Source: a virus | Lineage: Duplodnaviria; Caudoviricetes | DNA length: 64,000 nucleotides | Strand: one strand, 5' to 3' | Virus record (IMG/VR): IMGVR_UViG_3300028886_000035 | Location: 1 to 64,000 of that record | Shown: positions 3-18,887 of the stretch, in pieces | Numbering within the stretch: the stretch's first letter is position 1 | How the letters are laid out: each line of letters starts with the position of its first letter | Program-made: the position numbers and the translations under genes | The notes under the pieces: generated by a model | What the model saw: only the letters and a program-made list of their open reading frames with translations | The model's database searches: none | What the model was told of the DNA's origin: nothing

Positions 3-3000
3 ATTCAATCCTAATTTATGAGCTAATGATAAATAAGACATTATACCATTTAAATATTCATTTTCATCGCCAGTAAAATATTGATAATTTCCTTTACCAG
101 ACTCTTCCATACCATATTTTAATAAATGTACATATTTTTTCAAATCGCCTTGTGCGATTGCTTCCTTTAATTGTGGTAATTGTTCTCTAACTGGGACTGT
201 ACCTTTTACATATGCTTCTGCGCCCTCTTGATTGTTTACATAAATACCAAATCCACTATCATTTTTTCCATGCCCCATATCAACAATAGTCCCACCATAA
301 TTATGAATTTTATCAGAATATGCCATATCAGATGGATTTTGACCCGTTTCAAATGCTAATTGCGCAAATATTACATCTGCTGGTAAACCAGTTAATTGAG
401 AAATCATTTTAGCTTGTTCTGCCATACTTGCATATGCTCCAGTATTTGAAACATTTGGAGCTGAATTTTGTTGAATTGACTTATTTTCTACATATTCTGG
501 ATTATTATCATTAATTAATTGTTTCGTTAAACTATCTTCATAATTTCCCATAGCCGCGCCATAAAAACCTGCGCTTTTAGCTATTTCTTCATCTTCTTCA
601 GCAGTATTTCCAATACCTTCCTTAATTTCTTCGGCAGGGATATATCCAATATAACCTGCTAGATTAGATAATTTTTCAGTAAATTCTTCACTGCTTCCAG
701 AACGACCTAGAGGATTATCATATGGGTCATTAACTATATATGATTTTTCGCCTAACAATCCAACATTATCTTCATCTGTGAGTTCATATGGTTCACCGCC
801 ATTCAATTCAACAATACGATGTTTTAAATAACGTAATGTTGCATAAGCGGCACTTTTTTTATCATAATCAAATTCACTTTCATGTTCATTAACATAATCT
901 TGTGTATAAACATATGTATGAATCGCCATATCAAGATTTGTAATTTCATTATCATCGCCAGGGAAAAATGCTTCAAGCTGATTTTTAATATATTCTTTTC
1001 CTTTTTCTGTTAATTGCTTATTTCCATTTTCATTCCCATTTAAATTAAAATTACCTGTTGTCCTTGCAACTTGTAATGCATGTATTGCATAAGCTAATAC
1101 CTTTGCAACACCATGTTGAGAAAATGCCAATTCATCTATCTGTAATTTAAAAAATTGTTTTTCTTGTTCATTTAAATCACCATATTCTATTCCATTTGCT
1201 TCTAAATATGACCTAAAATATTCTCCTTGTGTTGTTTCAGAATTAATTAATTGTTCAAAACTAGCACCTGTCAATCCTGTTTGGTCATTCATTTTATCAA
1301 GAAATTCTTCATTTCCTTCTTTATATTTTGCTTGAACACCAGCCAAGGCTTTTAATTTTTCTGATACCATTGACAAATAGTTAGTTCCAGCCAATAAAAA
1401 TGCTAACGGTTTACCAATAATTGGTATTTTTCCAACAGTTTTATCCAATAATTTAAATGTTGCCCACATAGAACCTGCTTCTATTCCACCTGCTACTGCT
1501 TTTTGTCCAAATGACCTATCATCATCAGATAAAACCTCTCCTGCAAATGCGCCAATGTACATCAATCTATTTAATAACTTTGATAAAGCACCCCCACTTT
1601 TTTTCGGCAGTTTTTCCTCTTTACCAGATGTTTTTGTTTTGTTCTTACTTTTTGTCTTGGTATTACCCATTTCTGATTTTAATCCAATGGCAGTTAATAC
1701 TGCATCCATTGTTGACATACCAGCTCTTGTTTCTTGTGGATTTGCTAATTTATCAACTTTTGGTAAATCTTTTTCTGATAATTCTTTTGGCATTTTTACA
1801 TTCGGGAATTTTGGCATTTTTAAATCTTTTATCTGTTTATATTTATCATATGCTAATTTTCCAATCGAAGAAATTCCAATCGTAGCTATTGTAACTCCAA
1901 ACAAATTTGTTCCATATTGCATTAATAGACTATCTAATTGATTTTTACCTGTAATATCAATTAATTTACCGTCTTTATTATAAAAAGTGACTTTTGCATT
2001 ACCAGTCTTAAACATTGTATACATACTATTGATACTTTGTTCATCGTCTTGTTCTTCTTGTTGCTTTGCATTATCCTCATTATTTGAAGCATTGGCAGAA
2101 ACGTTTTTAGAACCTAATAACATTGTCCCTGCAATTGCACCGGCAGTTAAAATGCTTCCTAACATCCCACCTCCACGAAATCCTTTTAATCCTTTTCCAA
2201 TAGAAGATAATGTTTTCCTTGATGGTTTTAATTTATTTAATCCACTTTTTAAATTGCCAAAAAATCCTTTTCCATTTTTCAATTCTGTTTTTGGTTTTTC
2301 AGATTCTACTTGTTGTTTTACATTTTCTTCTGCTAATTGTTCATGGTCTACATCATTATGATGTCCTAATTTATTTTTTGCATATTCAAATACTTTTTTA
2401 CCTGTAAATTTACCAAATGCTTTTATACCACCTAATCCTAATCCTGCTAATGCTAATGCAGTTAAAGGATTTTGAGAAGCAAACGTTAATGCTTTTGTTA
2501 ACGTTGGAGATTCTTCAATAAATTTTTTAATTTCAGGAATTAATGCAAGTAAACTTGCCATAGCATTTGTAATTAACTTAATTCCTTCTACAATTATATT
2601 TTCAAATTGTTGCATACCTTCATTATTGCCAACCAATAAATCAGATAATTTATTAGCAGAAGCCAACATCATAGATTTATTTTTATCTACTTCAGATAAT
2701 TGATTTGATGCTTGTTCTAACTGTTTTGTAAAATCTTTGGTTGCGTTTGTAGCTTTTTTATTTTTTGCTAATTCATCATTTTTTGAACCTTCTAAGTGTT
2801 CTGCTAATTTATCATAATTTCCATTTTCTACATCGTTCATTAATACCTGCGTTTCTTTCATGTTCATACCGCCAATCATACTAGCAGCTGCATGAACACC
2901 AAATTGTTTCATCACAGGGTTATCAAACATATCTGTAACCATACGTACACGAGAATACATTTGTGAACCTATATAATGTTGTCTATCTGCGTATGGATTA

Positions 3001-5474
3001 CCATATCTATCATGGGTTTTTAAATTTGCGAACATACCTTGCCACATGTTCGCAGCTCCACCGCCCAAAACAGAAAATATAGAATTATATTTATTTTGAG
3101 AAAAGTTTCCTTGCGCACCTATAACTTGACCAACAAATGAAGCAGAATCCTCCATACGATATCCATCTGCAATTAAAGAACCCATATTATCTACAACTTG
3201 TTTACCACTATATCCTAATTGACGATAGTGATTAACCAATTGTGATATTTGTCCCATATATCTATTAACAGGTATTTGAGCCTTATTTGCATCACCAATT
3301 ACTTGCATCATCATATCAATGGTTTGTTTTGTAGACATACGATTTTGATAATAAAAGGCATTGATTCCACTTGCTATTGTACCGTTATCCAAACCATATA
3401 TTTGTGATGGTAATACAAGTGCTTTTGTAAAAGCCATTATATCAGACGCTTTATCTGCACCTGTTCTACCTGGTTGATTCATTACAGAACTAGCTAAATT
3501 TTGATACATTGTTGATGGAACATTAAATCCAATTTGTCCATATGATTTTTCAAATAATTCTTGTCCCATATTAAATACTAAATCATGAGCATTTTGAGAC
3601 ATAGGTGCTCCCATAGAAGCATTTGCCAAATAATTTGAATACATCATTTGACCATTTTCATTTGCACGGTCTTTTACCATATCAAACCATTTATGAAATG
3701 AAAATAATCCACCCAATCCCATCATAGCCAAGGCTTTTGTAAAAAATCCTTTAACACTTTTTATATTTTTAAATAAATCATGTTGTTTCTTTAATTCTGC
3801 GTTTTTAATACTATCATCTAAATCTTGTTTTTCTTCTTCTAATTGTTTTGCTTGTTGATATAATGCTTTCAACAATTTAGAATCAGGGTCAAAACGAGAC
3901 TTGCTATAAATTTGTTGATAAGTACGATGAATAGCTTCTCCAATAACAGAACTTAATTCTTTCGCAGATATAATATCTTGTTTATTACCTTTGGGCAAAT
4001 TTTTCCTATTAAATTCATGTGATAATTGAATTAAACTATCATTATTATTTTTTAATGGATTTGAAAATCTATCATTTTTTATATCTTCTAATAAATATTT
4101 AGAGGAATCTATTCCTGTTTGTTCTGCTAAGTCACTTTCTTCTTTTGAAATTTTACTTACTTCTTGATTATACAATAATGTATTTCTTGCATAATTGTTA
4201 TAAAGTTGATTTAAATTCTTGTCTTTAGAAAAGATGCCACCATACAAATTATGATAACGGAAATTATTATAATTAGAGTTGATTTGTCCTGTAAATGCTC
4301 CTTGCATTTGTAACATTTGGAAATTATAATAATCTGTTTTATCATCACTATTTTTTTTCTTATTATATACAGTTACAAATTGATGAATACTTTTATCAAC
4401 TAATTTTTTAGCAATCTCATTTTTTTCAGATAAAGCATTTTTTAAAATTTGTGTTGTTTGTTCACTTATATTTGTAATAGTTTTATCATCACTATTTGCT
4501 TGTGTATTTTGTTGCGTGAATATAGTTATTTCATTAATATATTTATCTAATTTTTCGTTTGATAAATACGATGATATGTCTTTATAATCTGAAAATTCAT
4601 TTGTTGAGTTTAAATTATTTTCTAAATTGTTTCCTTTATCTACAATATCTTTTTGCATTACTTGGGCTAAATTAATTAAAATTTCGCCCATGTTTTCTGA
4701 ATCTTTTACATTACCTGTATCATTTAATTTTAATTTTCTAATAAAATCAAGTTGGTTTAATAAATTTTTAGAACCTTCACTATATGGTCGTTGCTTAATA
4801 TTTGATTTTATATCACTATCAATATTTTTAATTAAATTCGTCAATCTAGTACGAGCTTGTGATGCAAATTTATTTCTAGCACCTATTTCTTGTGTTTTAT
4901 CATCTAAGCTATTGATAATATCAACTAATCTATTTGTTTGTTCTGCATTGTAACTTTGTTTAATATTTAAAGTTACTTTGTATAAAATATTGATGAAGTT
5001 TTCATGTGCTTCTTGTTGTTTTTGTTGTTCAGATACACCTGTGTTTAACAAATCTTCTAAAATTTTTGTTTGTTCGTTTACACTCTTTAAATATTCAACA
5101 TTAATATTGTTTAATTCATCAACAATTTTTTGTATACTTTCATCTGTACTATTTTTAAAACTAAAAGAAACTTCCTGCATTTTAGATAACATTTGAAGAA
5201 CATTCTTACTATAACTATCAATGTTATCCATTGCAACTGTTACTGTTTCTGAAGAAAAAGGCTTAGATAATACTTCTAAAATTTCTTTTCTTTCTTTTTT
5301 AAAATGTTCGATTATATCAAATATTTTTTGTAATTCTTCTAATTTATTATTTTTAATTATTTTTGTAATTAAATCAGAATAATTTTTGTTGATTTTTTCT
5401 AATTCTTTTGATACATTATCAAACTTATCTTTTACTGCATATAACTCTGTATTAGATATTGTAGCATTTTCCAT
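3..5474 (-). CDS. Tape-measure-like protein 3 (partial, >1824 aa, runs off window start) with GH73/glucosaminidase-like domain near the truncated end
   Basis: Not in ORF track. ATG at 5474 after GGTG SD; same frame at 5474, ~3723 and 3. Central part (ALAMMGLGGLFS...NENGQMMY...SYGQIGF...AQIPV...GYRMEDSAS) is homologous to the two neighbouring giant ORFs. Positions ~1-440 read ISQLTGLPADVIFAQLAFETG...HNYGG...YFTGDENEY, matching the GH73/FlgJ pattern (AQAALESG...NNLFG...YATD). Confidence 0.75.
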   Translation of the reverse strand, partial: MENATISNTELYAVKDKFDNVSKELEKINKNYSDLITKIIKNNKLEELQKIFDIIEHFKKERKEILEVLSKPFSSETVTVAMDNIDSYSKNVLQMLSKMQEVSFSFKNSTDESIQKIVDELNNINVEYLKSVNEQTKILEDLLNTGVSEQQKQQEAHENFINILYKVTLNIKQSYNAEQTNRLVDIINSLDDKTQEIGARNKFASQARTRLTNLIKNIDSDIKSNIKQRPYSEGSKNLLNQLDFIRKLKLNDTGNVKDSENMGEILINLAQVMQKDIVDKGNNLENNLNSTNEFSDYKDISSYLSNEKLDKYINEITIFTQQNTQANSDDKTITNISEQTTQILKNALSEKNEIAKKLVDKSIHQFVTVYNKKKNSDDKTDYYNFQMLQMQGAFTGQINSNYNNFRYHNLYGGIFSKDKNLNQLYNNYARNTLLYNQEVSKISKEESDLAEQTGIDSSKYLLEDIKNDRFSNPLKNNNDSLIQLSHEFNRKNLPKGNKQDIISAKELSSVIGEAIHRTYQQIYSKSRFDPDSKLLKALYQQAKQLEEEKQDLDDSIKNAELKKQHDLFKNIKSVKGFFTKALAMMGLGGLFSFHKWFDMVKDRANENGQMMYSNYLANASMGAPMSQNAHDLVFNMGQELFEKSYGQIGFNVPSTMYQNLASSVMNQPGRTGADKASDIMAFTKALVLPSQIYGLDNGTIASGINAFYYQNRMSTKQTIDMMMQVIGDANKAQIPVNRYMGQISQLVNHYRQLGYSGKQVVDNMGSLIADGYRMEDSASFVGQVIGAQGNFSQNKYNSIFSVLGGGAANMWQGMFANLKTHDRYGNPYADRQHYIGSQMYSRVRMVTDMFDNPVMKQFGVHAAASMIGGMNMKETQVLMNDVENGNYDKLAEHLEGSKNDELAKNKKATNATKDFTKQLEQASNQLSEVDKNKSMMLASANKLSDLLVGNNEGMQQFENIIVEGIKLITNAMASLLALIPEIKKFIEESPTLTKALTFASQNPLTALALAGLGLGGIKAFGKFTGKKVFEYAKNKLGHHNDVDHEQLAEENVKQQVESEKPKTELKNGKGFFGNLKSGLNKLKPSRKTLSSIGKGLKGFRGGGMLGSILTAGAIAGTMLLGSKNVSANASNNEDNAKQQEEQDDEQSINSMYTMFKTGNAKVTFYNKDGKLIDITGKNQLDSLLMQYGTNLFGVTIATIGISSIGKLAYDKYKQIKDLKMPKFPNVKMPKELSEKDLPKVDKLANPQETRAGMSTMDAVLTAIGLKSEMGNTKTKSKNKTKTSGKEEKLPKKSGGALSKLLNRLMYIGAFAGEVLSDDDRSFGQKAVAGGIEAGSMWATFKLLDKTVGKIPIIGKPLAFLLAGTNYLSMVSEKLKALAGVQAKYKEGNEEFLDKMNDQTGLTGASFEQLINSETTQGEYFRSYLEANGIEYGDLNEQEKQFFKLQIDELAFSQHGVAKVLAYAIHALQVARTTGNFNLNGNENGNKQLTEKGKEYIKNQLEAFFPGDDNEITNLDMAIHTYVYTQDYVNEHESEFDYDKKSAAYATLRYLKHRIVELNGGEPYELTDEDNVGLLGEKSYIVNDPYDNPLGRSGSSEEFTEKLSNLAGYIGYIPAEEIKEGIGNTAEEDEEIAKSAGFYGAAMGNYEDSLTKQLINDNNPEYVENKSIQQNSAPNVSNTGAYASMAEQAKMISQLTGLPADVIFAQLAFETGQNPSDMAYSDKIHNYGGTIVDMGHGKNDSGFGIYVNNQEGAEAYVKGTVPVREQLPQLKEAIAQGDLKKYVHLLKYGMEESGKGNYQYFTGDENEYLNGIMSYLSLAHKLGLN

Positions 5475-5498
5475 AATTTTCACCAACTTCATATAGTA

Positions 5499-5513
5499 TC
5501 TATTAAAAAAATA
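5499..5513 (-). promoter_or_regulatory. Phage promoter-like motif TATTT-N6-TAGA (tape-measure 3)
   Basis: TATTT TTTTAA TAGA, 25 nt before the ATG. Confidence 0.55.
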
Positions 5514-5520
5514 CAAAAAA

Positions 5521-5554
5521 AAAGTGGTTCTATCTTAATCAGAACCACGCTTTT
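5521..5554 (-). terminator. Intrinsic terminator
   Basis: GTGGTTCT/AGAACCAC stem followed by a T-run on the minus strand. Confidence 0.65.
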
Positions 5555-5570
5555 ATTAATGATTGTTTAA

Positions 5571-5984
5571 TTATGCATCAATTGTTGTATTACCTATCGT
5601 TTCTTCTGTAACTTCATTTTCTTTTTTAGCAATTTCATCATCACTCTTATGACGAATTGCTTCAAATTCATTATAAAGTGTTGTTAAAACGGCAGGACTA
5701 ATAGCATTGAGGATTTTATTCTTCTGTTCATCTGTAAGAATTAATCCATTTACAGAAACAAGTGCGTGTTTCAAAATACTAATCTGCATACCAAACATAC
5801 GTGTAAGGTCATCCTGCTTATAACTTTGACTTTCCTTCAATGCATCAAGATATTCCTGTGAAGAAATTGGACGCATAGCCCATTTCTTACCATACTTTTC
5901 TACAATTTCTGTTTCTTCACTTGGGTCAATCAAATCTGCAAGCATTTCAGAAATAATCTTATCATTTTTATTCTTTGTTGCCAT
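5571..5984 (-). CDS. Tail assembly chaperone, short form (paralogue of the N-terminal part of 17804..18775)
   Basis: Lies between tape-measure genes. KYGKKWAMRPISSQE...LKHALVSVNG...ISPAVLTTLYNEF aligns with KFNKEWEFRTLDSEE...LQMALVSINH...LPPKVIETLYNEY. Confidence 0.6.
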   Translation of the reverse strand: MATKNKNDKIISEMLADLIDPSEETEIVEKYGKKWAMRPISSQEYLDALKESQSYKQDDLTRMFGMQISILKHALVSVNGLILTDEQKNKILNAISPAVLTTLYNEFEAIRHKSDDEIAKKENEVTEETIGNTTIDA

Positions 5985-6083
5985 AATATTATGTCAAATC
6001 CTTCCTATATGAAAAATTTAATTATCTTCTATTAAAAATATAGAAATTTTTATTGATATTATTATATGAAATAATTTTTAATT

Positions 6084-9000
6084 TTAACCATTAAATGAAA
6101 TTTTTAAGCTAGATGGTTCATAAAAATCTTGAATGGTGTTTTTAACTTCTGTAGTAAAAGCAATTATTTTATCCGAACGCATTTGTTTCTTATCAAAACG
6201 CATTTGAATTTTTTCATGGTCTATAGATTCTTGGTTTTTTAATCCTTGAAATTGTTTCGATTGTTCTACGGTATCTATATCATCTGATAATTTTCCCCAT
6301 TGTTTAATATTTTTTTCTCTAATTTCTTTACCTATTTCTTCAATAGATTGAAATTTCTGATTAGGGTCAACATATAAACCATTAATAATTCTACCTTGAA
6401 CTTCTTTACCGTTTCCTACCGCCACCTTATATTTTCTTAAATTTTCATCCCATTGTTCTTTTAATGTTTTCGGTTTTATATCTTCAAAATTCAAATTAAG
6501 ATTTAATTTTGGATTTGCTCCTGAACTACCATTAGAATTTGCATCATCCCAAGAAAACTGTTGTGTTAAAAGTGTTCCTTCGTAACCTCCTGTTCCTTCT
6601 AACAATATATCAAAATGAGTTCCAGCTTCATTAACTACACCAACATGGGCTTCATTACCAGCTCTTATTATAGCACCTACATCTACTCCGCCCAATTCCA
6701 TATCTATTTTTCTTCCTGTACTATGTGGCGTACCAGGGTCATGCCCTAATGTAGCTACGTTCCATTCTAATGTGCCACCACCACTATATTTTGCATATAA
6801 TTGGGTAAACAAATTTAGTCTTTGTTTCGCTTTTGGAGTTAATCTACCAATATCCATGGCAATATATTGTGCAGAATTTGCATGTGCATCATAACTATGG
6901 TCCCATCCTTTATCTGCTACGAATCCACTCCATCTTAAATGAGAAAAATCAACACCTAAATCCCCACTATATATACCACCACTATTAGAATATGAACTCG
7001 GACTAATATTAGCAGATATAGGTACATACCCTGCCGTTTGTTCTGTTTCAGGAACCGGATTATTATTGCTATCAATCATATGAAATTTTCTAGCATAATC
7101 AACTTGGTCAGGTAAATCTCTCCAATCATCACCATAATATCCTCTATTATATGCCAATACTGCTTTAAAAGTAGAACCTCCATATTTATCAAGAAGATTC
7201 CTTAAATAATGCGCAGCACCTAATACAGACGCATGAGGGTCATTTGGGTCAAAACCAAATCCAGCAGCAGTACTAGGCATAAATTGTGCTATACCAACTG
7301 CTCCAGCAGTACTATGAGCAGGATTTTTGTTCATTCCAGATTCAATCTGTAATACACCTGCTATTAACCATTTTGGTACATTCCACTTTGCACTTGCTTC
7401 ATCAATCCATGATTTTACGTCAGCAGGGGCATTGGCATAACAAGCATTACCATATTCAATAGCAGAAGCATTTGTATAAATACTGCCTGTTCCACCACCT
7501 GCCATAGATTGAATTTTAATAAGTGCTTGCGCAGCCATTTCTAACGCCTTTTTATTATCTCTAAAAATTTGCAAGAAGCTTTCATAACTATTCTGCCAAA
7601 TTCGCTTTTCATGGTCTGCTACTTTTGACCAATTAATGCCATGTTTTTCTAAAACCGCATCTCTTGCTTTTGTATATGTTTCATTCGATTCATTAATTGT
7701 AAAAGAAGTTTTATTCGCAGAAAGATTTTGAATTTCCATTTCTTTTGATTTATTGTATGCTTCTGTTTCTTGTTGATAGGCTTTAACATAAGCATTGTAT
7801 TGAGCAGATTGTTTTTTAGATGTTTTATCTTGTTGACTAGCTTGTTTTTGCTGGTCTTGTGTTTGTTGTTGTGTTGGTTCTTCACGAACTAACCCTGCCA
7901 AGCTATCTTGTGTAGTTTGTTTGTCATAATTATTTAATGCATTTTGTGCTTTTACATCATTTGTACGCAACAATTCCATAGCACCTGCACCAATTCCTGC
8001 GCCTAATGCAGCTCCTTTTGAACCACCTAAAGCATATCCAATAAATCCACCTGCTAAACCAGAAACAAAATCTCCTATTGGTCTATTATCTTGAACATCT
8101 TTATCAAATAAACTAGTTAAAAATGCTCCACCTAAAGCTAGTAAACCACCTTTTTTAGCATATTTTAATCTCTTTGCCCATTTCATAGAATTATATAATT
8201 GTTTTCTTCGATTAATTCTCATTTGCTCTAATCGTTTAGCTTTTTCCATTATAGCTTTGTTTTTTGCTTCTATTTTTTTTGCTTGTTTTACTTGTTGTTC
8301 GTATAATCTTTTCTCTCTTTGATATTGTTGCCATTTTTTTCTTTTTAATTTTTTACCTTCTGCTTCTATTTTTTTCTTTTGTTCTTCTAATTTTTTATAT
8401 CGTTCACTTTTTTCAGGTATTTTACCATCTTTTACTTGTTTATTTAAACCACTAGACAAATGTTTTATTCTTCTTAAAATTCCTTGATGTTTTATTTTAC
8501 CTTTTGTTGAAATTTTACCTAATATACTAGCTATCGTTGCTACACTAGCACCTGCTAATGCTAATGCAAGCGCATATTTAATCAAAGTATAATCTTTTTT
8601 ATCCTGTGTACCTGGTCCAATTATTAATGTAGCTTTTGCAGTACCATTTTGGAACATTTCAATTAATTGACCTTTTTGGTCTTTATTTCCCATTTTTTGT
8701 GCTTGTTCTTGTAATCCTTCGTATTGATTCCATGCTCCTAATCCAACACCGGCAGTTACCGCCGTTGCAGTAGCAATAGCTTTACCTGTTGAAATACCTG
8801 ATGACTTACCTGATAAAACATTTTTAAATGCACCAAATCCACCTTTGAGTACTTTTCCTGCACCAAATCTAAGAGCACCTAACCCAACAATTGTACCTGC
8901 AATTGTTAATAATGGACTATTATTAAACGCATTGGTATACATTTTACCTAAAGGTGAATTTAAAATTCCTCCAATTTGACGAATTAATTCAGCCATAGCA

Positions 9001-11942
9001 TTTGTAAACATAGCTATTATTTTTTCTATTGCTTTTAATCCTTTTGTTAATTCAGGCGATAATATTTTATCAAATTTAAATGACAAATCGTTCAAAAATT
9101 TAATATATGTAGCTTGAATTTTTGTAAATTCACTTAATTGTTCTCCTGCTTGACTTAATTGTTTTGTATAATCTTGTGTTGTGTGTGGTAAAGCCAATGG
9201 GTCATTTTTTAACTTATCCCAACCTTTTAATTTTGCTTTTAGTTCTTCATCACGACCTTGTTCCTTCATTTGCATAATTTCTTGTGCTTGTTTAATTGTA
9301 TATCCTTGGTCTAATATATGACTAAAAGCATCTGTTTGACCTAATGCAGTTCCTAAACCGCCCCAACGAGAACCAAAATAATTTTGTTCAGAAAACATAC
9401 GGTCAACTAAATTATCATAATACGAATCTATTGGATTTCCGTGCATATCATGCGACTTTACACCTGATAACAAAGTGTCAAATGTTGATTGTTTTGGATT
9501 ATTCCATAATCCCCAAAAAATATTTCTTGCCCAATCATTAGAAAAAGTTTTTGCGTTATTTGCAGTAGATGTAACTAAGGCATTAGCATCTTCTACGCGC
9601 ATACCATTTACTCCAACAAGAGAAGTCATAGCATCCAAATATTTATCAGCGTTAACACCTACTGAACGCATAGCTTCATTTGTACTATTAAATATTGATA
9701 CCAATTGAGAAACAGGTATACCTTGCGTTTGTGCAAATCTTTCAACAGTTCTTAATTTAGTTAATGCTTCATTAGCAGAATTGCCCATATCACGATAAAA
9801 CGTTTTTAAAAACTGTTCCATTCCACCAATATCGCCAAACATTTCTTTATCAGGAACTAAATTTTTAGATAACCATGCAGTATCTCTACGATTTTCTTCA
9901 GGACTATTGCCTTTTTGTCCACCAACAGTGGACTGTAATCCACGATATATTTCTCCAACTGTACCATATCCAATTTGTCCATACGTAGCATTAAAATAGT
10001 TTGATGGTGCATAATAACTTAAATCATCTATATTTGACTGACTAGGAGTTATACCAAAAGCGGTATCAGTCAAAGCAATATTATATCTAAGTTGACCATT
10101 TTCTTTTGACCTGTTTACAACACCCATTAACATTTGCATTGGATGCAAAATAGCACCTATACCTAAAAATGTTAAACCGCCTGATAATATATTCATCATT
10201 TTGTCTTTAAACATTTTTACATAATGTAATGCCTGTTTCATACCTTCTAATGATTGTTGTAATTCATTAATTTGTTTCAATTCATATTCTAATGCTTCTT
10301 TTTCTTCTTTTAACTGATAATATTCATTTGGTTTTTTGTCTAAATCGTAAAAAGCAAATAACAATTTGTTTAACTGCATTATTGTTTGACTTACAGAAAA
10401 AGAAATTTGTTGTAAATTAGCTTTTTCTTTATCATTTGTAAATAGCAAATATGATAAGCTATTTTTATTAACTTTTGACAACATATTTCTATTCACAGAT
10501 GTAACTTCTAAAGCTCCACTTGTAATTGGTATTAATAAATCATTACTATAGTTTTCGTTTGTAGTGATTTTGTTATTTTTAAAAAAACTTTTCATTTGTA
10601 GATTGAACATTGTATTAGTTCTACGAACATTATCTACATCATTAGCGAAACTTATACTACCACCATTATATAAATGATTATTATTTGAATTAATTTTTAA
10701 AAAAGAAGAGACATTATCCAAATTTTGATTACTAAAAGATAATTTAGATACTGTTTTCATTCTTTGTTGTTTTACTAAAGAATGCGCATATTGATATTCA
10801 GGTGAAGAAACATTGTTTAAACTACCATTAGTAAAAGTTTTAACAAAATTAATAATCCTACCTTCAGAAGATAATTTAGATATATCTTCCATCAAATCTT
10901 TATTAGCAAGTACTGTTATTATGCTTTCTTTATAACTGCCTAACAATTGTTCATATTCTTGTTGAACAATATCTCTTTTCTTTTTACTTCCTTTTGTTTC
11001 TTCATCAAATTTTACAAAAAAATCATTTATTTTTGTAATAGCGTCTTTATATTTTTTAAAATTTGATGAATTATCATTACTATCATTTTCTAAATCCTTG
11101 TCAAACTTTGTATTTAAATCTTCAACTGCACTAGCTATTCTTTTTTTAAAATCATCTAAATCATCTATTAAAATTTTTTGTTGTTCTTTTTCATCTGATT
11201 TCGGAAATAATTTATTCGCAAGATTTTGTAATATTTCTACTTCTGTCTTACCCTTTTCGTCCTGTATCTTATTTTGAATATGATGGATTCTATCTAATTG
11301 TAAACGAATTAAGTCTACGTATTTTTCTTTAATTGTATCCATCAAATTAACAGAATCTTGTGTATTTAAATCATTAGAAGTACGAACTTTATAAAATTGT
11401 TCTAATTGATTAGTAGTAAGTGCAGATAAAATACCAATATCACTTGTATTTGGCAAATAAGAAATTTGTGCTTGTAATTGTTCTTTTTTTATATTATCTG
11501 CATAATTTTTAATTCTTTCAGATAATCTTGTTATTCCTTTAAATATATACTTGTTTTCACCACTAGATAATAATACTCTATTTAAATCTTTTTTTAATGA
11601 ATTTATACTCCCTGCTCCATTTGCATTTTCAATTAATTGTATGGCTTTTGTCAAATCATTCACAAAATCATTTTGTTTTTTTATATTATGAGTAATGTAT
11701 CCATTTTTATTTATATCATTTAAATTGTTATAGTATGCAATTACCTGACCTAAAACATCTATTTGATGTATAAGTGCTTCTATTTCTTCTTTTTTCAAAG
11801 CATCTTGTGTTTTATCAAATTCTTTTATTAATTCTTTAACTTTTACAATTTTTTGATTTTGTACTTCTTTTAATCCAGCAGAAGTTACTAAAATTTTATC
11901 GTTTATATCTCTTTGGACTTTGCTTGCTTTTACAATAGCCAT
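6084..11942 (-). CDS. Tape-measure-like protein 2 (1952 aa) with lytic transglycosylase (SLT) and a possible M15-type peptidase domain
   Basis: Long helical protein with hydrophobic Gly/Ala segments. SLT motifs IAGVLQIESG...GAVGIAQFMPSTA...AHYLRNLLDKY...AVLAYNRG (~7120-7420). HSTGRKID...HFD (~6600-6730) resembles the M15 H-x6-D...H zinc site. Confidence 0.8.
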   Translation of the reverse strand: MAIVKASKVQRDINDKILVTSAGLKEVQNQKIVKVKELIKEFDKTQDALKKEEIEALIHQIDVLGQVIAYYNNLNDINKNGYITHNIKKQNDFVNDLTKAIQLIENANGAGSINSLKKDLNRVLLSSGENKYIFKGITRLSERIKNYADNIKKEQLQAQISYLPNTSDIGILSALTTNQLEQFYKVRTSNDLNTQDSVNLMDTIKEKYVDLIRLQLDRIHHIQNKIQDEKGKTEVEILQNLANKLFPKSDEKEQQKILIDDLDDFKKRIASAVEDLNTKFDKDLENDSNDNSSNFKKYKDAITKINDFFVKFDEETKGSKKKRDIVQQEYEQLLGSYKESIITVLANKDLMEDISKLSSEGRIINFVKTFTNGSLNNVSSPEYQYAHSLVKQQRMKTVSKLSFSNQNLDNVSSFLKINSNNNHLYNGGSISFANDVDNVRRTNTMFNLQMKSFFKNNKITTNENYSNDLLIPITSGALEVTSVNRNMLSKVNKNSLSYLLFTNDKEKANLQQISFSVSQTIMQLNKLLFAFYDLDKKPNEYYQLKEEKEALEYELKQINELQQSLEGMKQALHYVKMFKDKMMNILSGGLTFLGIGAILHPMQMLMGVVNRSKENGQLRYNIALTDTAFGITPSQSNIDDLSYYAPSNYFNATYGQIGYGTVGEIYRGLQSTVGGQKGNSPEENRRDTAWLSKNLVPDKEMFGDIGGMEQFLKTFYRDMGNSANEALTKLRTVERFAQTQGIPVSQLVSIFNSTNEAMRSVGVNADKYLDAMTSLVGVNGMRVEDANALVTSTANNAKTFSNDWARNIFWGLWNNPKQSTFDTLLSGVKSHDMHGNPIDSYYDNLVDRMFSEQNYFGSRWGGLGTALGQTDAFSHILDQGYTIKQAQEIMQMKEQGRDEELKAKLKGWDKLKNDPLALPHTTQDYTKQLSQAGEQLSEFTKIQATYIKFLNDLSFKFDKILSPELTKGLKAIEKIIAMFTNAMAELIRQIGGILNSPLGKMYTNAFNNSPLLTIAGTIVGLGALRFGAGKVLKGGFGAFKNVLSGKSSGISTGKAIATATAVTAGVGLGAWNQYEGLQEQAQKMGNKDQKGQLIEMFQNGTAKATLIIGPGTQDKKDYTLIKYALALALAGASVATIASILGKISTKGKIKHQGILRRIKHLSSGLNKQVKDGKIPEKSERYKKLEEQKKKIEAEGKKLKRKKWQQYQREKRLYEQQVKQAKKIEAKNKAIMEKAKRLEQMRINRRKQLYNSMKWAKRLKYAKKGGLLALGGAFLTSLFDKDVQDNRPIGDFVSGLAGGFIGYALGGSKGAALGAGIGAGAMELLRTNDVKAQNALNNYDKQTTQDSLAGLVREEPTQQQTQDQQKQASQQDKTSKKQSAQYNAYVKAYQQETEAYNKSKEMEIQNLSANKTSFTINESNETYTKARDAVLEKHGINWSKVADHEKRIWQNSYESFLQIFRDNKKALEMAAQALIKIQSMAGGGTGSIYTNASAIEYGNACYANAPADVKSWIDEASAKWNVPKWLIAGVLQIESGMNKNPAHSTAGAVGIAQFMPSTAAGFGFDPNDPHASVLGAAHYLRNLLDKYGGSTFKAVLAYNRGYYGDDWRDLPDQVDYARKFHMIDSNNNPVPETEQTAGYVPISANISPSSYSNSGGIYSGDLGVDFSHLRWSGFVADKGWDHSYDAHANSAQYIAMDIGRLTPKAKQRLNLFTQLYAKYSGGGTLEWNVATLGHDPGTPHSTGRKIDMELGGVDVGAIIRAGNEAHVGVVNEAGTHFDILLEGTGGYEGTLLTQQFSWDDANSNGSSGANPKLNLNLNFEDIKPKTLKEQWDENLRKYKVAVGNGKEVQGRIINGLYVDPNQKFQSIEEIGKEIREKNIKQWGKLSDDIDTVEQSKQFQGLKNQESIDHEKIQMRFDKKQMRSDKIIAFTTEVKNTIQDFYEPSSLKISFNG

Positions 11943-11957
11943 CTTACAACCCTCTTT

Positions 11958-14900
11958 TTATGCTTCTTTTAATGCCTGTGCTTGATTACGTTCTTCTTCT
12001 GAAGCAGTATTATTAGCTTGCGGTTTAGGAACATTTTTAAAGTAATTATTAACAATATTATTAATATTTATACTTGCCATTTCCATTTGTTGTTTTTCTT
12101 TATTTAATTCTTCTTGACGTTTTCTATTTTCTGCATAGGTTTTTTCTTGTTGCTCGTGGTCTGATTTATACTGTTCTGCCATTTTTTGAAGTGCTCCATC
12201 ATATCCCTCTGTACTCATACGATACCTAGAACTAGCTTTAATAGCTTTAAAATCTACTTTTTGTTCTTTATCCATTTTTTTACCAATATCAGATGGACCT
12301 GAATTTGTCAAATATTTGCCATCACCACTATAAGCACCATTTTTTAAACTAACACCAAATAAATCTTTATCATGAACACCTGAAAATGCTCTAAACCTAT
12401 CTCTTAATCCACGTAAAGATAACATACGTCCATTTGAAGATAAAGCAGTAGAACCATCCAAAATCAATTGACCTGTAGCAACTCTATCATTTAACAATTC
12501 TTTGTCTTTTAATCCTGCCAATTCACCAATTTGTTTCTGCATATTCATAATATTTTTTTCTGCATCTGCATATGTACTTTCTAATGTTTGGTCTTTATTT
12601 TGTGACGTTGTTTGTTGCGTATCTTGATGTGGATTATCAGGAGGATTTGGCTTGTTGAGTTGCATTTTGTCTCCAACATCTTTAGGATTAGGCGTAGTAG
12701 AGACAATGCTTTCCATATTTTTCTTTATGGCATCTTCATTTTGTGTAGACGAAACATAAGCAACTTCATTATAAGCCATATTATATGCTTTATTAATATC
12801 TTCATCACTAAAATTTTCTAAATTAGAATCTTGGAATATATTAGCTATTGTTGCTCTATCTCCGTTTCTAAATGGACCTGAAACTAAATGACCGGCTATA
12901 TCTGTCCAATCGCTATCATTCATAATAGCATTTGCAATTTTATCTTCACCAGAACCAGCATTCGTTCCACCCATAATTTGACCTAACAAACTTAAGCGTT
13001 GTTTCTTTTCTTCTATAGAAAGATTATTATCTTTCCCACCATCTTCTAAATACATACCTCCGAGTTTCAAAGACCAAGTTGTATCATGCCCTGATAATTC
13101 ATTTGGGTCTAAACTTTCAAATCCTTGTTCTTTTTGTTCATCTGTCATCCACTCATTAGCTGCAACCTCTGCCGTTTTTTTCATTCCTTTGCCTTTTGAT
13201 ATTTCATCATTATTAAAAGCATATTCTGCATCATTTTTTTGCTTATCTGCTACTGTACCTGTAGCTAATCCTGCAACAAACGCAGCAACTTCATCTGCCA
13301 ATCCACGAGACTTTAAATCATTATATACATCATTAATATATTTTTCTTGGTCATTTGTTAAATCTTCCAATTTAACACCATGTTTAGAAAGTGCATCTGC
13401 TGTAGCTTTTTGCCTACTATCATTTGAAGAAACAATAGATTTTGTAGCATCTCCATATAAACTAGCCGATTGTTTTACTTTTGCAGCATAAGAATCATGG
13501 GCAGTTTTAATGGCAGATTTATCTGAAATTCCTAATGCATCACCAACAGATGAATTTTGCAAACCTTCTCCTGCAAATCCACCAATTAGAGCACCTGCCG
13601 TACCACCTAAAAATCCTCCAACAATAGTACCAACTGGGCCAACAAAAGAACCTGCTAAAGCTCCTAATTTTGCACCTGCTAGACCACCTGCAATTGCACC
13701 GCCACCTCTAAAAGCAACTCTTGCTACGTGTTGTCCCATACTATAGTTATCGCTATTTTCGTCACTAAATTCGTTAATTATTTCGTCTGCAAGAGTAATC
13801 CCAGCTCCAAGAGGACCGCCAAATTTACCTAATTTGGCAAATCTTGACCACCATTTGCCTTTTTTTGCAACATTATTTAATGCATCCCATCTATCTTTAT
13901 TAATCAAATTATATTTTTTAGCAACTGCCAATGCAGCTGCACCAGGAACTGCAATCGTTCCACCTGCGATTAATCCTGCATTATTAATTAATGTTGTTTT
14001 GTCAAGATTTTTTTCACGTTGTTCCCAATCTTCTGTAGCTTCACCTGTATTTGCATCTACATAAACATCATTTGGATTTGCTATTTTATAATTCTCTATT
14101 TCATCACCATATCGTTCTGCTATAGACTGATTAATAAATTCAGCGTTACTTAAACTTTCATTATAATTTCCTTTTTTATCTATTAAATTAGGGTCAATTT
14201 GACTATAATCTTCAGACCATCCTGTACCATAATAATAGCTATTTTCATCACCTGTATGTTCTTTTGCATATGTATTACTTTCACTTGGTTGTAGTGCTCC
14301 ATCACTATCAGGAGAATAACCTGTTGAATTTTGTAAGTTATCAACTATTGTTTGAACATCAGATAAATCTTGTTCTGCATTATTATTTGTTTGAACTTTA
14401 GCTTCACCTGTTGTGAACATAGACACAAGCGCACTTAATCCTGCACCGCCAACTAATGCAGCACCAGCAACCAAAGCCATACCGCCTGATATAATAGCAC
14501 CTTTTCCACCTAAATGGCTTCCTGCTTTAGCTATATTTTTAACAACAGAGGGAGAAGATTTTAACGCTTTTTGTCCTAAAGCCTTTAATCCATATACACC
14601 TGCTCCTGCGGCAGTTGCACCACCCAATATACCTAATCCTGTCGCCACTTTATGATTACTCATAGTATCTACTGCATCAGAAACAGTTTCACCAACTTTA
14701 TGTTTACCCATAAAATCAGTAATGGCTTTCATCAATTCGCCAACAGTAGTTACTAAAGTATTTAATATTTTTGCAAAACCTTCACGGAATTTAGCAAGTG
14801 GACCAGACAAATATTCATTAATTGCCCATCCTAATTTCTTTTGAGCTTCAGATAAATCCGTTTCTAATTTTTGGAAAATAGATACTTGGTCACCAGCAGT

Positions 14901-17780
14901 TTTTAACTTTTCTTTAGCATCTAAAATGGCTTCTGTATACGCCTGTTTACCGCCATCTTTTTCTTCATCTGCTTTTTTCAATATATCCTGTACTAAACTC
15001 ATATCTCCTTTAGATACTGCGTCTTGTAACATAGAAGCATTTTTTTGAGAAAAACCTCTTTTCATAAGTGTATCAATGTACATAATGCCACCTAAAGCAT
15101 TATCTCCGCCAATTCCACCCATTAAATTAGCTTCTGCCATAACACGTTGAGCCATCATTGGATAATAATTTTCATCAACTCTACCATTAGCCTTATATGG
15201 CTTATATCCTTGTACAATTAAATCAAATGGACTACCACCTTGACCTGCCATCATACCAAAAAATGCACTACTATTCATATCTGTAGCCATTTTTTCATTA
15301 GCACCAGCCATTTCAGTAATCATACTACTTGCATCTTCGGGACGTAAATGAGAATGATTAATTAATGCATTCATTGATGACATAACTTGACGAGCACTTA
15401 CACCATGATTAATTAAATTAGAAGATAAATTATTAATCATAGTCATATATGCTTTTACAGGAATACCTGCTGATGTAGCAGCCTGGCCTACATTAACCAT
15501 TGCTTGTGTAGCTTCGCTTGCAGACATACCTAAATCTTTATATGTATTTTTAAAGAAAGTACCTATTGTACCTGCATCTACATTGAATACTTTTCCCCAT
15601 GCAAATGAATTATCTGTTAATTGTGCCATGTCCTCCATATTTGCATTAGGGTCTGTGTTATAATGACCACCAACAGTTTGAGTTAATGTTTTATAATGAT
15701 TAAGAAATTCTCCTTCCTTAATCATTCCATTTGTATTTTTCCAATATTCAAAATCTTTATCTCTTGCAATATAATTAATTCTTCCTTGGTTTAAATTAGC
15801 TCCCATAGAAAAATCATTCATTGCAACTGCGTATCTACGTTGTCCTTCTTGTGTTTCATACCCAATAGCTTTATTAAGCATTACCATAGGAGACAAAAGT
15901 GCTCCTAGACCAAGCATAGACAACCCGCCCGCTAGTAGATTTTTTAATTTGCTTACGCCACTAGCTATATCAGAAAATATATTTGACAAAGCTGAAGAAC
16001 TTTCTTTAGCATCATCAGCATTTTGTTTTAATTTTAATAACGCTTTTTGTTCTTCACGTAATTTTTTCAAAGATTTGTTTTCAGGGTCTAAATCTTCTAT
16101 TGCATTAATCGTTTTAGTTAAATTGCCCAATGCATTATCTACTTGTTTTGTAAATGCTTCAAAAACTTTTTTATCTTCTGCATTTAGATTTTTGCCACCA
16201 CCTGTATGTAAATTCATACCTTTAGCAGTATCTAACACAGATTGACCCATAGATACATTAACTTTTGCTAATTCGGCAATTCCTTGCGCTTTTTGTTTAT
16301 TATTCCAATTACCACTCATTACATTATTTACTAAATCAGAATAACGAGAACTAGCCAAAAAACCTTCTCTTTGTGTATTTTCCATACCTCTAGCGAGAGA
16401 AGTTTTATTACCTAATAAATTGCCTGTTGTAACATATTGATACCAAGGATTATTTTTACCTTGTGAATATTCCAAATTAATTAATGCGTCGTTAGCACCT
16501 GTTGTTAAATCATTAAAACTAATACTAGCTAATGATTGTGTTGCCATAGCATTACTTACCGAATTATATTCATCTGTACCAGGTTTTATGGCATTTTGTT
16601 GCGCAGTTACGAATGCATTTTTTGCATTTTGTATAGCACTATTTGTAGCAGAAATAAGACTCTGATTATTTTCTTTAAAATCATTGTTAAAAGCAGTTAA
16701 TTGTTGCCTAATAGCTTTTACTATATCTGCTATCCCACTATTAGCATTACCTTGTTGTTCTAATATACTTGCGAATTGATTAAGTGTATTATTTACATTA
16801 TTAGCAACTTTTATATTTAATTCTTGTGTTGCTCTAATATGGCTTAAATTACTCCCATCTTCATTAGCTTTTAATGAAGATGAAATTGCAGACATAACTG
16901 ACTTGGCATTACCAACTAATCCACGTAAATTGTTTAATGTATTTTCAGAAAAATTATCAGAACTAATATCATTTTTTACATCATTTTTAAATTGTTGTAA
17001 ACTTTGTATTAATTGATTATCAATACTTTCAACTGCCGTTTTTGATAATTCGTCAACAGAATCTAACAGTTGACTAGTTGCACCTGTTCCTTGTTCAATG
17101 TTAGCAAGAGTAGTCTGTACTTCTTCAAACAATCTACTCTCTGCATCACTTAACGTATTTGCACTATCAGCAGTTTGTTTTATGTCTTGCGTAGCCTGAT
17201 TCATAGCTTGCGTATGTACTTGCGCTACATCATTTGTTTCTTTAATTTGTTGTTGTGTACTATCTAAAACAGATTGTTTTGTTTCTTGTAAAGTGTTTTG
17301 TAACTGCGATAATTTATTTGTTGTTTCACTTACACTATTAGCAACACTTTGAATAATATTATCATAATCTTCTGTATTTTGTATTTTATTTGTTTGAACA
17401 ATCTCTTGTACTTGTTTACTAACAGAAGTTATAATTTCATTTTTAATTGTATTGATATTATTTATAGCAGATTCCATCTGTTGTATAATATCATTACTAT
17501 TAGTAGTATCTTGTGAATTTTTTAACCCTTCAATTTTTTGGTCAACATCTTTTAATTTTGATAATATTTCATTAAATCCTTCAATGTGAAAATGATTATT
17601 ATTAATACTACTAATTGTATCTCTTAAACCATCTGTTGCATTAGAAATAATATTAAAATTATCATTCATATTAATTCTGCTACCTGTACTCCCTACAGAT
17701 ATAGTAGAACTTGTTTCAGAAATAGGTTGTGTATTATTACTTGTATCAAATTTACCAAATGTTGTATCATTTTTATCCAT
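11958..17780 (-). CDS. Tape-measure-like protein 1 (1940 aa)
   Basis: Follows a tail chaperone gene. Coiled-coil N-terminus, central block shared with the other two giant ORFs, and a glycine-zipper segment GGLAGAKLGALAGSFVGPVGTIVGGFLGG. No recognisable enzyme domain. Confidence 0.75.
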   Translation of the reverse strand: MDKNDTTFGKFDTSNNTQPISETSSTISVGSTGSRINMNDNFNIISNATDGLRDTISSINNNHFHIEGFNEILSKLKDVDQKIEGLKNSQDTTNSNDIIQQMESAINNINTIKNEIITSVSKQVQEIVQTNKIQNTEDYDNIIQSVANSVSETTNKLSQLQNTLQETKQSVLDSTQQQIKETNDVAQVHTQAMNQATQDIKQTADSANTLSDAESRLFEEVQTTLANIEQGTGATSQLLDSVDELSKTAVESIDNQLIQSLQQFKNDVKNDISSDNFSENTLNNLRGLVGNAKSVMSAISSSLKANEDGSNLSHIRATQELNIKVANNVNNTLNQFASILEQQGNANSGIADIVKAIRQQLTAFNNDFKENNQSLISATNSAIQNAKNAFVTAQQNAIKPGTDEYNSVSNAMATQSLASISFNDLTTGANDALINLEYSQGKNNPWYQYVTTGNLLGNKTSLARGMENTQREGFLASSRYSDLVNNVMSGNWNNKQKAQGIAELAKVNVSMGQSVLDTAKGMNLHTGGGKNLNAEDKKVFEAFTKQVDNALGNLTKTINAIEDLDPENKSLKKLREEQKALLKLKQNADDAKESSSALSNIFSDIASGVSKLKNLLAGGLSMLGLGALLSPMVMLNKAIGYETQEGQRRYAVAMNDFSMGANLNQGRINYIARDKDFEYWKNTNGMIKEGEFLNHYKTLTQTVGGHYNTDPNANMEDMAQLTDNSFAWGKVFNVDAGTIGTFFKNTYKDLGMSASEATQAMVNVGQAATSAGIPVKAYMTMINNLSSNLINHGVSARQVMSSMNALINHSHLRPEDASSMITEMAGANEKMATDMNSSAFFGMMAGQGGSPFDLIVQGYKPYKANGRVDENYYPMMAQRVMAEANLMGGIGGDNALGGIMYIDTLMKRGFSQKNASMLQDAVSKGDMSLVQDILKKADEEKDGGKQAYTEAILDAKEKLKTAGDQVSIFQKLETDLSEAQKKLGWAINEYLSGPLAKFREGFAKILNTLVTTVGELMKAITDFMGKHKVGETVSDAVDTMSNHKVATGLGILGGATAAGAGVYGLKALGQKALKSSPSVVKNIAKAGSHLGGKGAIISGGMALVAGAALVGGAGLSALVSMFTTGEAKVQTNNNAEQDLSDVQTIVDNLQNSTGYSPDSDGALQPSESNTYAKEHTGDENSYYYGTGWSEDYSQIDPNLIDKKGNYNESLSNAEFINQSIAERYGDEIENYKIANPNDVYVDANTGEATEDWEQREKNLDKTTLINNAGLIAGGTIAVPGAAALAVAKKYNLINKDRWDALNNVAKKGKWWSRFAKLGKFGGPLGAGITLADEIINEFSDENSDNYSMGQHVARVAFRGGGAIAGGLAGAKLGALAGSFVGPVGTIVGGFLGGTAGALIGGFAGEGLQNSSVGDALGISDKSAIKTAHDSYAAKVKQSASLYGDATKSIVSSNDSRQKATADALSKHGVKLEDLTNDQEKYINDVYNDLKSRGLADEVAAFVAGLATGTVADKQKNDAEYAFNNDEISKGKGMKKTAEVAANEWMTDEQKEQGFESLDPNELSGHDTTWSLKLGGMYLEDGGKDNNLSIEEKKQRLSLLGQIMGGTNAGSGEDKIANAIMNDSDWTDIAGHLVSGPFRNGDRATIANIFQDSNLENFSDEDINKAYNMAYNEVAYVSSTQNEDAIKKNMESIVSTTPNPKDVGDKMQLNKPNPPDNPHQDTQQTTSQNKDQTLESTYADAEKNIMNMQKQIGELAGLKDKELLNDRVATGQLILDGSTALSSNGRMLSLRGLRDRFRAFSGVHDKDLFGVSLKNGAYSGDGKYLTNSGPSDIGKKMDKEQKVDFKAIKASSRYRMSTEGYDGALQKMAEQYKSDHEQQEKTYAENRKRQEELNKEKQQMEMASININNIVNNYFKNVPKPQANNTASEEERNQAQALKEA

Positions 17781-17803: not shown

Positions 17804-18775
17804 TTATTTATCATCGTCTTGTACCATAATTACATCTAAATTATCAGGATTTACACCTGCTTCTTTAGCTTCTTTTTCTAAATTCTTCATTATATTATCA
17901 TTCTCTTTTTGAATTGTTTTTTCCGCACCTAATACGCGAGACAAGAAATCTTCTTTTGTTTCACTTGAATTTCCTTTATGAGTATCATCATCCAATACAG
18001 TTACAGGCTCATCATCACCCATAAACATTTTCAACTTTTCGTCAAAATCTTCATCAACTGTAGTATCTCCATAATGAATTACTTCATTTGGATTATATGG
18101 ATTTTGTTCATCATGTGCTTTTACTCGTGTAATATTTCCTGATTTTGTTGTATATTGTTCTGCACTTTTTTCATTATCACGTACCGCTTTTGCCAATTCA
18201 GGATTAACATAATAAGCCAAATAATCTAATTTCATTTTATCATTTTTTTCTTTTTCTAATTCTTCTTGACTTATATTTTCATATAACCACATGAGTTGGT
18301 GGTCATTTAAATGCATGAACTCCTTATCAGTAGGTAGTTTTTTAAAATACGACATTATTTTAAATTTAATTTTACTGTAAGGATTTTGTGCAATTTTTTT
18401 AACAAAATTAATATCCGAAGTTGCCTCTACCTGAATTTTATCTAATTTTTGATATTCGTTATACAAAGTTTCAATAACTTTAGGTGGTAACTTTTCAATA
18501 ATTTGTTCTTTCATATTTTCAGTTGGCTCTATATGGTTAATACTAACTAATGCCATTTGCAACATTGTTTTCTTTAAAACCGCCCAACTAGTAGCGTCAT
18601 CATCATCAACCATAGCTATTGACCATAATTGTTTATGTTCTTCCGAATCTAATGTACGAAATTCCCATTCTTTATTAAATTTTTTGAAAGTTTTTGTTCC
18701 ATATCCTTTAAAGATAATATCCTGTATAATTAGTTCTTTTTCACGTTCTTCTTCTATCTTTTTATCATCTGCCAT
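17804..18775 (-). CDS. Tail assembly chaperone, long form (chaperone domain plus C-terminal extension)
   Basis: Directly upstream of tape-measure 1. N-terminal ~120 aa is paralogous to 5571..5984. Start placed at ATG 18775 behind GGGAG (ORF track starts at 18796). Confidence 0.6.
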   Translation of the reverse strand: MADDKKIEEEREKELIIQDIIFKGYGTKTFKKFNKEWEFRTLDSEEHKQLWSIAMVDDDDATSWAVLKKTMLQMALVSINHIEPTENMKEQIIEKLPPKVIETLYNEYQKLDKIQVEATSDINFVKKIAQNPYSKIKFKIMSYFKKLPTDKEFMHLNDHQLMWLYENISQEELEKEKNDKMKLDYLAYYVNPELAKAVRDNEKSAEQYTTKSGNITRVKAHDEQNPYNPNEVIHYGDTTVDEDFDEKLKMFMGDDEPVTVLDDDTHKGNSSETKEDFLSRVLGAEKTIQKENDNIMKNLEKEAKEAGVNPDNLDVIMVQDDDK

Positions 18776-18812
18776 AATATTAAAACTCCCATCCATTTTC
18801 GTACATTTTTAA

Positions 18813-18827
18813 TCTACTAATAAAATA
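18813..18827 (-). promoter_or_regulatory. Phage promoter-like motif TATTT-N6-TAGA (chaperone/tape-measure operon)
   Basis: TATTT TATTAG TAGA. Confidence 0.55.
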
Positions 18828-18857
18828 GATTTTTCATACCCCTTCATTACTTACAAT

Positions 18858-18887
18858 AAAAAAGACTATGAATTATTCATAGTCTTT
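18858..18887 (-). terminator. Intrinsic terminator
   Basis: AAAGACTATGAA/TTCATAGTCTTT inverted repeat. Confidence 0.65.

Follow-up and report, generated by a model that had tools for sequence, protein, structure and literature searches.

Three tandem tape-measure paralogs with coupled lengths in a giant relative of Bacillus phage G, and their possible co-assembly in one tail

The tape-measure protein (TMP) of tailed phages is a textbook protein ruler that, to our knowledge, is invariably regarded as the homo-oligomeric product of a single gene. What, then, is a phage doing with three such genes in a row? The question is raised by the IMG/VR record IMGVR_UViG_3300028886_000035, a single contig of 281,186 bp with 28% G+C, the first 64 kb of which make up the window. 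The genes of the window lie nearly all on the minus strand, and among them are three tandem open reading frames (ORFs), here named TMP-A, TMP-B and TMP-C, or A, B and C. We find that the three are anciently diverged tape-measure paralogs whose lengths change in concert across genomes. We consider it somewhat better than an even bet (a probability of roughly 0.55), judging from the genomic evidence below, that they co-assemble in register in one tail lumen, each chain with its own cell-wall enzymes.

TMP-A (1940 amino acids (aa); window 11958-17780, minus strand) and TMP-B (1952 aa; 6084-11942, minus strand) have the lengths reported in a preliminary description of this DNA. The >1824 aa given there for C is a lower bound, as the contig start truncates the gene; C is not about 1830 aa long. 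At least 1829 aa of TMP-C are encoded in the window (3-5492, minus strand; ORF 3-5516), and the ortholog P0081, which is 97.4% identical to C over 1835 aa and begins at the MENAT methionine, extends ~185 aa further, to 2016 aa in total. Gene C probably starts at the ATG at 5474 or 5492 rather than at the TTG at 5516. A circular closure of the contig, which would give a C of 1835-1843 aa, is ruled out by the same continuation of P0081. The genome record is incomplete and not circularly closed at the contig start.

The three ORFs share a central block (residues 608-1062 of A, window 14595-15959; residues 578-1029 of B, window 8856-10211; window 2409-3773 in C), and all block motifs quoted in the preliminary description were found again in A, B and C. 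The tandem paralogy proposed there is borne out by pairwise BLASTP, which gave 27% identity over 609 aa for A and B (E 2e-51), 26% over ~750 aa for B and C (E 2e-33) and 25% over 323 aa for A and C (E 3e-18). The divergence outside the block that had also been noted is true at the BLAST level only, since profile alignment is collinear nearly end to end: when ortholog alignments were compared with hhalign, A2-1489 aligned with B22-1456 (E 3e-93), A37-1632 with C13-1589 (E 4e-71) and B11-1940 with C5-1999 (E 1e-85). Hydrophobic segments stand at corresponding places in all three proteins, at residues ~590-630 (block start) and ~1010-1130 (past the block), and the hydrophobic, Gly/Ala-rich segments described earlier as following the block were located at ~1010-1130 and ~1270-1400. 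By these alignments, the paralogy of A, B and C extends over whole genes and is collinear almost throughout.

By its genes, the phage is an uncultured giant myophage and kin of Bacillus phage G. Counterparts of the phage G sheath, gp175, gp177 and gp179/gp180 are 40-55% identical and stand in the same order in the contig, and the order sheath, tube, tube, chaperones, TMP in the window is that of phage G. In a tblastn search of 50,697 phage records, gp183 of phage G was the sole match to the shared block (E 4e-16), and the block profile matched gp183 with an E of 6e-57. The gp183 gene directly follows the frameshifted G/GT chaperones. Its product, the annotated tape measure of phage G, has 2893 aa, goes with a tail of 450 nm and has been identified in virions by mass spectrometry (PMC8570332). 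Of 17 block members, three matched the Pfam family PF10145 (PhageMin_Tail; best E 8.7e-7) and five matched PF20155 (TMP_3), all below the curated Pfam cut-offs; P0072, a member of the A clade, has a precomputed PF10145 match. As expected of TMPs, the three genes lie downstream of the sheath, tube and G/GT chaperone genes, and all three encode long, mostly helical chains with hydrophobic/transmembrane segments. Because the tail module is syntenic with that of phage G, the block is homologous to gp183 and weak PF10145/PF20155 matches are present, A, B and C are identified by homology and synteny as TMPs of the phage G gp183 type. They are not head-internal ejection proteins, the assignment that the preliminary description had named as running counter to its proposal: the TMP core is present in each, and the three genes follow the chaperones within the tail module. 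An AlphaFold model of the block was all-alpha, at moderate confidence (mean predicted local distance difference test score 64). A Foldseek search of this model against the PDB returned only designed helical repeats, none at E <= 0.001, and the block profile gave only chance helical matches to PDB sequences. The NCBIfam search yielded nothing for the TMP core or the chaperones, and a look-up of the last 500 aa of A in the ESM Atlas found no named family.

A word-indexed search returned many strain variants of 98-99% identity and a series of relatives at 40-63% identity. The gene order ch1, A, B, ch2, C, where ch1 and ch2 are the chaperone genes described below, recurs in L003/L017, L004, L005, L007, L009, L015 and L018, all copies being intact apart from one scaffold gap. 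The triple arrangement, which had been suggested as something to look for in related genomes, thus recurs in seven other metagenome contigs. The lengths of A, B and C are 1940, 1952 and 2016 aa in the type of the window phage (C from P0081), 1956, 1963 and 2024 aa in L003/L017, 2023, 1876 and 1865 aa in L004, 1906, 1837 and 1849 aa in L005, 2067, 1947 and 2082 aa in L007, 2248, 2165 and 2155 aa in L015 (a 420-kb contig), and 2037, 1855 and 1865 aa in L018; in L009, A has 2028 aa and C 1952 aa, with B in the scaffold gap. IMG/VR scans with A1, P0093 and P0112 as queries found no relatives. An exhaustive profile search collected 111 representative clusters at E < 1e-10, ranging from fragments of ~60 aa to 4393 aa, and its full-length members (~1400-4393 aa) have one block each. 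A tree of the block resolves A, B and C as three monophyletic groups (support 99-100 for each in the Shimodaira-Hasegawa-like approximate likelihood ratio test) within one clade of support 100. Since each of the three forms its own clade, the triplication predates these genomes; on the evidence of the tree, it is old and has long been retained.

Other members of the family differ in copy number. L012 has a single TMP of 2405 aa between the chaperones and baseplate genes, and as a single-TMP relative it bears two enzymes, glucosaminidase and NlpC/P60, on one chain. The single TMP of phage G likewise bears glucosaminidase and M23 (PMC8570332). A separate clade has two tandem paralogs, of 4266 aa (with an SLT domain) and then 3948 aa (M23) in L011/L013, and of 3676 aa and then 3422 aa in a second genome type. 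In L014 (21110-31031) two ORFs, of 2378 and 977 aa, stand in place of the second paralog, which is intact at 3422 aa in the 97-99% identical P0137; the interruption may stem from a sequencing error, a genuine break or recoding. L010 has a Y-type fragment ahead of a 3649-aa gene. The copies of the two-paralog clade occupy different subclades of one 11-row clade in the block tree, separate from that of the triple, and the two-paralog state is therefore an independent duplication.

Where a genome has several copies, their lengths differ with a coefficient of variation of 2-5.5%, whereas genome means range from 1864 to 4107 aa. Inside the triple clade the total lengths correlate with r 0.62-0.90 (permutation p 0.0015). 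A sharper, internal measure is the length of the spacer between R.ED[AS], the block anchor, and L..[HN]G[IV], a further motif present in all three paralogs. For A, B and C it amounts to 651, 649 and 651 aa in the window phage, 659, 642 and 652 aa in L003, 584, 578 and 564 aa in L018, 604, 568 and 554 aa in L005, 617, 610 and 609 aa in L007, and 649, 638 and 676 aa in L015. Spacer lengths correlate with a raw r of 0.93-0.96 (exact permutation p 2.8e-4) and with r 0.81-0.96 under independent contrasts, and the additional residues lie in roughly the same region of all three paralogs, 260-600 aa beyond the anchor. The spacers of one genome agree within 0.3-3% in the window phage, L003 and L007 and within up to 6-9% in L015 and L005, the totals within 4-10%. 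The two-paralog clade has matched pairs as well (4266/3948 and 3676/3422 aa), with a second conserved island at ~2396/2306 in one genome type and at 2104/2124 in the other. Two or more paralogs thus change length together across genomes, over few independent contrasts. Such coupled lengths favor co-assembly in one tail over a single ruler accompanied by two passengers.

The three paralogs have one pair of chaperone genes in common. ch1, a single ORF of 330 aa (17804-18796, minus strand), is a GT-like tail assembly chaperone that needs no frameshift. The C-terminal part of ch1 is similar to the frameshifted portion of gp182 from phage G (E 4e-14), and the N-terminal part shares 30% identity with ch2 (E 1e-12). 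Six of the seven relatives have an ORF of 304-329 aa ahead of A; in L004 an RNA-ligase gene lies between the two. ch2, a G-like small chaperone of 137 aa (5571-5984, minus strand) paralogous to the ch1 N-terminus, lies between B and C and is matched by phage G gp181 (tblastn, E 6e-5). An ORF of 122-149 aa is found at its position in all seven relatives. In Bacillus phage 0305phi8-36, a short and a long protein with a common domain make up a frameshift-free G/GT system (PMC2147016). With this precedent for a two-gene G and GT system, the idea that ch2 is a dedicated chaperone of C was downgraded.

The cell-wall enzymes are spread over the chains. TMP-B contains an SLT lytic transglycosylase domain at residues 1513-1601 (window 7140-7406; PF01464, E 1.3e-17), and TMP-C a weak glucosaminidase-like stretch (window 117-419). 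Domain library searches detected no enzyme domain in TMP-A of the window phage; NlpC/P60 domains were found in the A orthologs of L004, L007 and L009. Behind the SLT domain of TMP-B (residues ~1680-1800, window ~6500-6900) follow His/Asp motifs, HSTGRKID ... THFD, in a stretch that is matched by no library and may resemble a small metallopeptidase of the VanY/LAS type. Toward their ends, B and C share a domain of ~70 aa, TLKEQ..NLRKYKVAVGNGKE.QG.IINGLY, with 60% identity vs ~25% elsewhere in the paralogs (B residues ~1805-1875, window 6318-6530; in C within the last 185 aa of P0081). The two proteins may dock on the same partner, or the genes may have exchanged sequence more recently. The last 70 aa of the A, B and C orthologs (L003-L018, P0078-P0081) consist of a K/E/Q-rich coil and then a short conserved motif specific to each class: ..SATIN[VF].G.. 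in A, ..EY[FM]DNP.[IV].. in B and ..[VI]AHL.I.G.LKKG.. in C. These motifs may be docking strands for the tail tip.

Genes A and B are both preceded by strong Shine-Dalgarno sites, and only 15 nucleotides separate them. Between ch2 and gene C lies a terminator-like hairpin with a T-run (5524-5548, minus strand), which is followed by TTAATAGATA at 5497-5506. A hairpin and T-run were found at this junction in all eight genomes (the window phage, L017, L004, L005, L007, L009, L015 and L018), with stems of differing sequence. The motif after the hairpin, of the type TTWDTAGATW (TAGATA-type), also precedes ch1 (window 18811-18887) and occurs 21 times in the window vs 11.4 expected. Hairpin and motif may represent a terminator plus late-promoter pair that divides the TMP cluster into two transcription units. 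Because of the conserved terminator-like hairpin before it, gene C is probably transcribed separately from A and B and is perhaps differently dosed.

We propose that the three TMPs would be packed in parallel and in register inside a single tail-tube lumen, assisted by the two-gene G/GT-type chaperone pair (ch2 as G, ch1 as GT), and would jointly serve as a mixed ruler in tail assembly. At infection they would be expelled together; their hydrophobic segments would form a membrane channel, and the different C-terminal enzymes would cleave different bonds of the host wall (the SLT domain of B, a glucosaminidase-like or SLT domain of C, and NlpC/P60 of many A orthologs). Parallel, in-register packing would explain the matched totals, the closer match of internal landmarks and the long retention of all three genes, as well as the common chaperone pair and the distribution of enzymes over separate chains. 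In the solved myophage Pa193, three TMP C-termini dock on the tail tip (PMC11456595), and the proposed packing is compatible, by analogy, with docking of this kind. A common docking partner would explain the 60% identity of the C-terminal domain of B and C. A stricter version, an obligate heterotrimer with one copy each of A, B and C in register, docked on a threefold tip and each delivering a different wall-cutting enzyme, is put forward only tentatively, and we would bet against it at modest odds. If true, the heterotrimer would set tail length, viruses would have their first example of a hetero-oligomeric molecular ruler, and the two-paralog sister clade would be a 2:1 or 3:3 variant.

Several points weigh against co-assembly in one tail. 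The two-paralog sister clade is at odds with a simple 1:1:1 trimer, and with two matched paralogs there, stoichiometry cannot be read from gene number. The conserved hairpin before C suggests unequal expression of the three genes; on both grounds 1:1:1 should not be assumed. A lacks the C-terminal domain common to B and C, and in the two-paralog clade later landmarks are 90-230 aa out of register. The covariation rests on only five contrasts, two large ones dominating. Tandem duplicates start out equal in length, and alternative rulers could likewise stay matched under selection for one optimal tail length. The N-terminal offset of the block, tried as a further sign of coupling, was rejected as a family-wide trait at lengths of 1600-4400 aa: it is ~540-790 aa across the family, single-copy L012 included, with phage G (1066) as the exception. 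Finally, the phage is uncultured and known from its genes alone.

Part of this evidence would suit a tail in which only one paralog measures, most simply A, directly behind the GT chaperone. B and C would then be TMP-derived, ejected wall-digesting or pore proteins of the tail or baseplate that keep their length by descent only. Such a division of labor agrees with the clear enzyme domains on B and C and their absence from A in the window phage, with the C-terminal domain that B and C have and A lacks, and with a separate transcription unit for C, which a terminator-like hairpin precedes. Passengers, however, should drift in length, yet all three paralogs shift jointly by 60-100 aa between clades and their internal spacers agree to <=2 aa in the window phage. 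Moreover, all three retain full TMP architecture end to end, and matched pairs arose independently in a second clade. We therefore regard this explanation as unlikely. We also doubt, quite strongly, that the paralogs are alternative homo-oligomeric rulers, one per tail, which would yield three kinds of virion with equal tails and different wall enzymes as a form of bet-hedging across host wall types. The different muralytic domains on the paralogs would fit, known TMPs are homo-oligomeric (PMC11456595), and a shared optimal tail length could account for the matched totals. A common optimum, however, constrains totals and not internal landmarks, and the spacer matches better than the totals do; in addition, there is one chaperone pair in common rather than one per TMP.

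The paralogs might also be stacked end to end, so that tail length would be the sum of all three (~5900 aa, roughly 0.9 µm if helical). Long tails do occur in the lineage, as single-block family members reach 4393 aa. Stacking, however, requires neither equal lengths nor matched landmarks, and the C-terminal domain that B and C share would be expected at the tail tip. In addition, Staphylococcus jumbo phages with two TMP-like genes of 1962 and 1990 aa have tails of ~233 nm, which corresponds to one length and not to two. A series arrangement thus appears very improbable. The idea that faulty assembly or annotation, or a neutral duplication of recent date, produced the triple deserves next to no weight: the metagenome contig is indeed broken inside gene C, yet the same order is seen in eight independent assemblies (JGI, ENA, Logan, GenBank), and the paralogs are only ~25% identical, each forming an old clade. 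Against these alternatives, co-assembly of A, B and C in one lumen remains our preferred reading.

Upstream of the chaperones lie the sheath and tube-candidate genes. The tail sheath gene (721 aa; 27226-29391, minus strand) matches phrog_2839/279 tail sheath (E 4e-37) and is 50% identical to phage G gp178. The preliminary description had seen only one sheath gene, and a tblastn search of the whole 281-kb contig with the phage G sheath confirmed a single locus, at 27241-29391. Two paralogous tube-candidate genes follow (25859-27184, minus strand; 210 aa at 26552-27184 and 225 aa at 25859-26536), which match the virion structural protein family phrog_985 and are 40-56% identical to phage G gp179/gp180, themselves named as tube candidates (PMC8570332). 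Paired tube candidates are present also in single-TMP L012, and tube duplication is thus independent of tape-measure copy number. Between the tube genes and ch1, the window phage has gained mobile genes, namely an IS200/605 unit, an HNH endonuclease and two methyltransferases; none of these insertions is present in L007, L009 and L012. The IS200/IS605 unit (21886-23944) encodes a TnpA of 158 aa and a TnpB-like protein of 543 aa, with a local G+C of 0.39 vs 0.28 for the genome. Its companions inside the tail module are the HNH endonuclease, a DNA methyltransferase and a tRNA-type methyltransferase (also window 25073-25522 and 19579-21187). TnpB-like genes occur at similar, not identical, places in L003, L004 and L015, and the DNA methylase of L003 contains an intein. 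Baseplate genes were not detected in the 281-kb contig, in which phage G gp184-189 and the L015 proteins encoded downstream of C had no match, because the contig breaks within gene C.

In the literature on two, three, multiple or heterotrimeric TMPs we found no description of a triple or hetero-oligomeric tape measure, the nearest being a remark on Staphylococcus jumbo phages; paralogous tape measures side by side in one tail are not known from any phage. A lineage with three (or two) diverged, length-coupled rulers is a natural experiment that bears on the number of chains filling the tube, on how register is set and on how wall-breaching enzymes can be multiplied inside a narrow lumen. There are consequences for annotation as well, as extra TMP genes in giant gut and rumen phages are likely labelled 'tail lysin' or 'hypothetical', and in multi-TMP phages a tail length predicted from one TMP or from the sum would be ambiguous.

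Tape measures with built-in peptidoglycan hydrolases are known from mycobacteriophage TM4 (Tmp), T5 (Pb2) and phiIPLA35. As proposed for the TMPs of the window phage, these rulers are also ejected wall-digesting proteins; they are products of single genes and form homo-oligomers. The domain common to ch2 and ch1 has its counterpart in gp143/gp144 of phage 0305phi8-36, where a paralogous domain is likewise shared by a short and a long chaperone (PMC2147016). The chaperone genes of that phage are adjacent and upstream of a single TMP, whereas ch2 of the window phage lies between TMP-B and TMP-C. Adjacent near-equal paralogs are found in the Staphylococcus jumbo phages MarsHill, Madawaska, Machias and vB_SauM-UFV_DC4 (1962 and 1990 aa in the last), and these twin TMP-like proteins, too, are helical, with transmembrane segments and different wall enzymes. 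They have been mentioned in one sentence as 'two potential tape measure proteins' (bioRxiv 10.1101/2020.12.14.422802; PMC10638138), covariation and co-assembly not being analyzed there. In contrast to the window phage, those phages belong to an AR9/phiKZ-like lineage, have two copies and show no detectable similarity to the TMP family described here. Bacillus (Lysinibacillus) phage G (Donellivirus gee; PMC8570332) shares with the window phage the homologous block, the module order gp178-gp183 and C-terminal muralytic domains on the TMP. It differs in that its chaperones are frameshifted and a single TMP chain of 2893 aa bears both enzymes, where the window phage has three TMPs of ~1940-2016 aa and a two-gene chaperone, and the block starts at residue 1066 in gp183 vs ~600 in the TMPs of the window phage.

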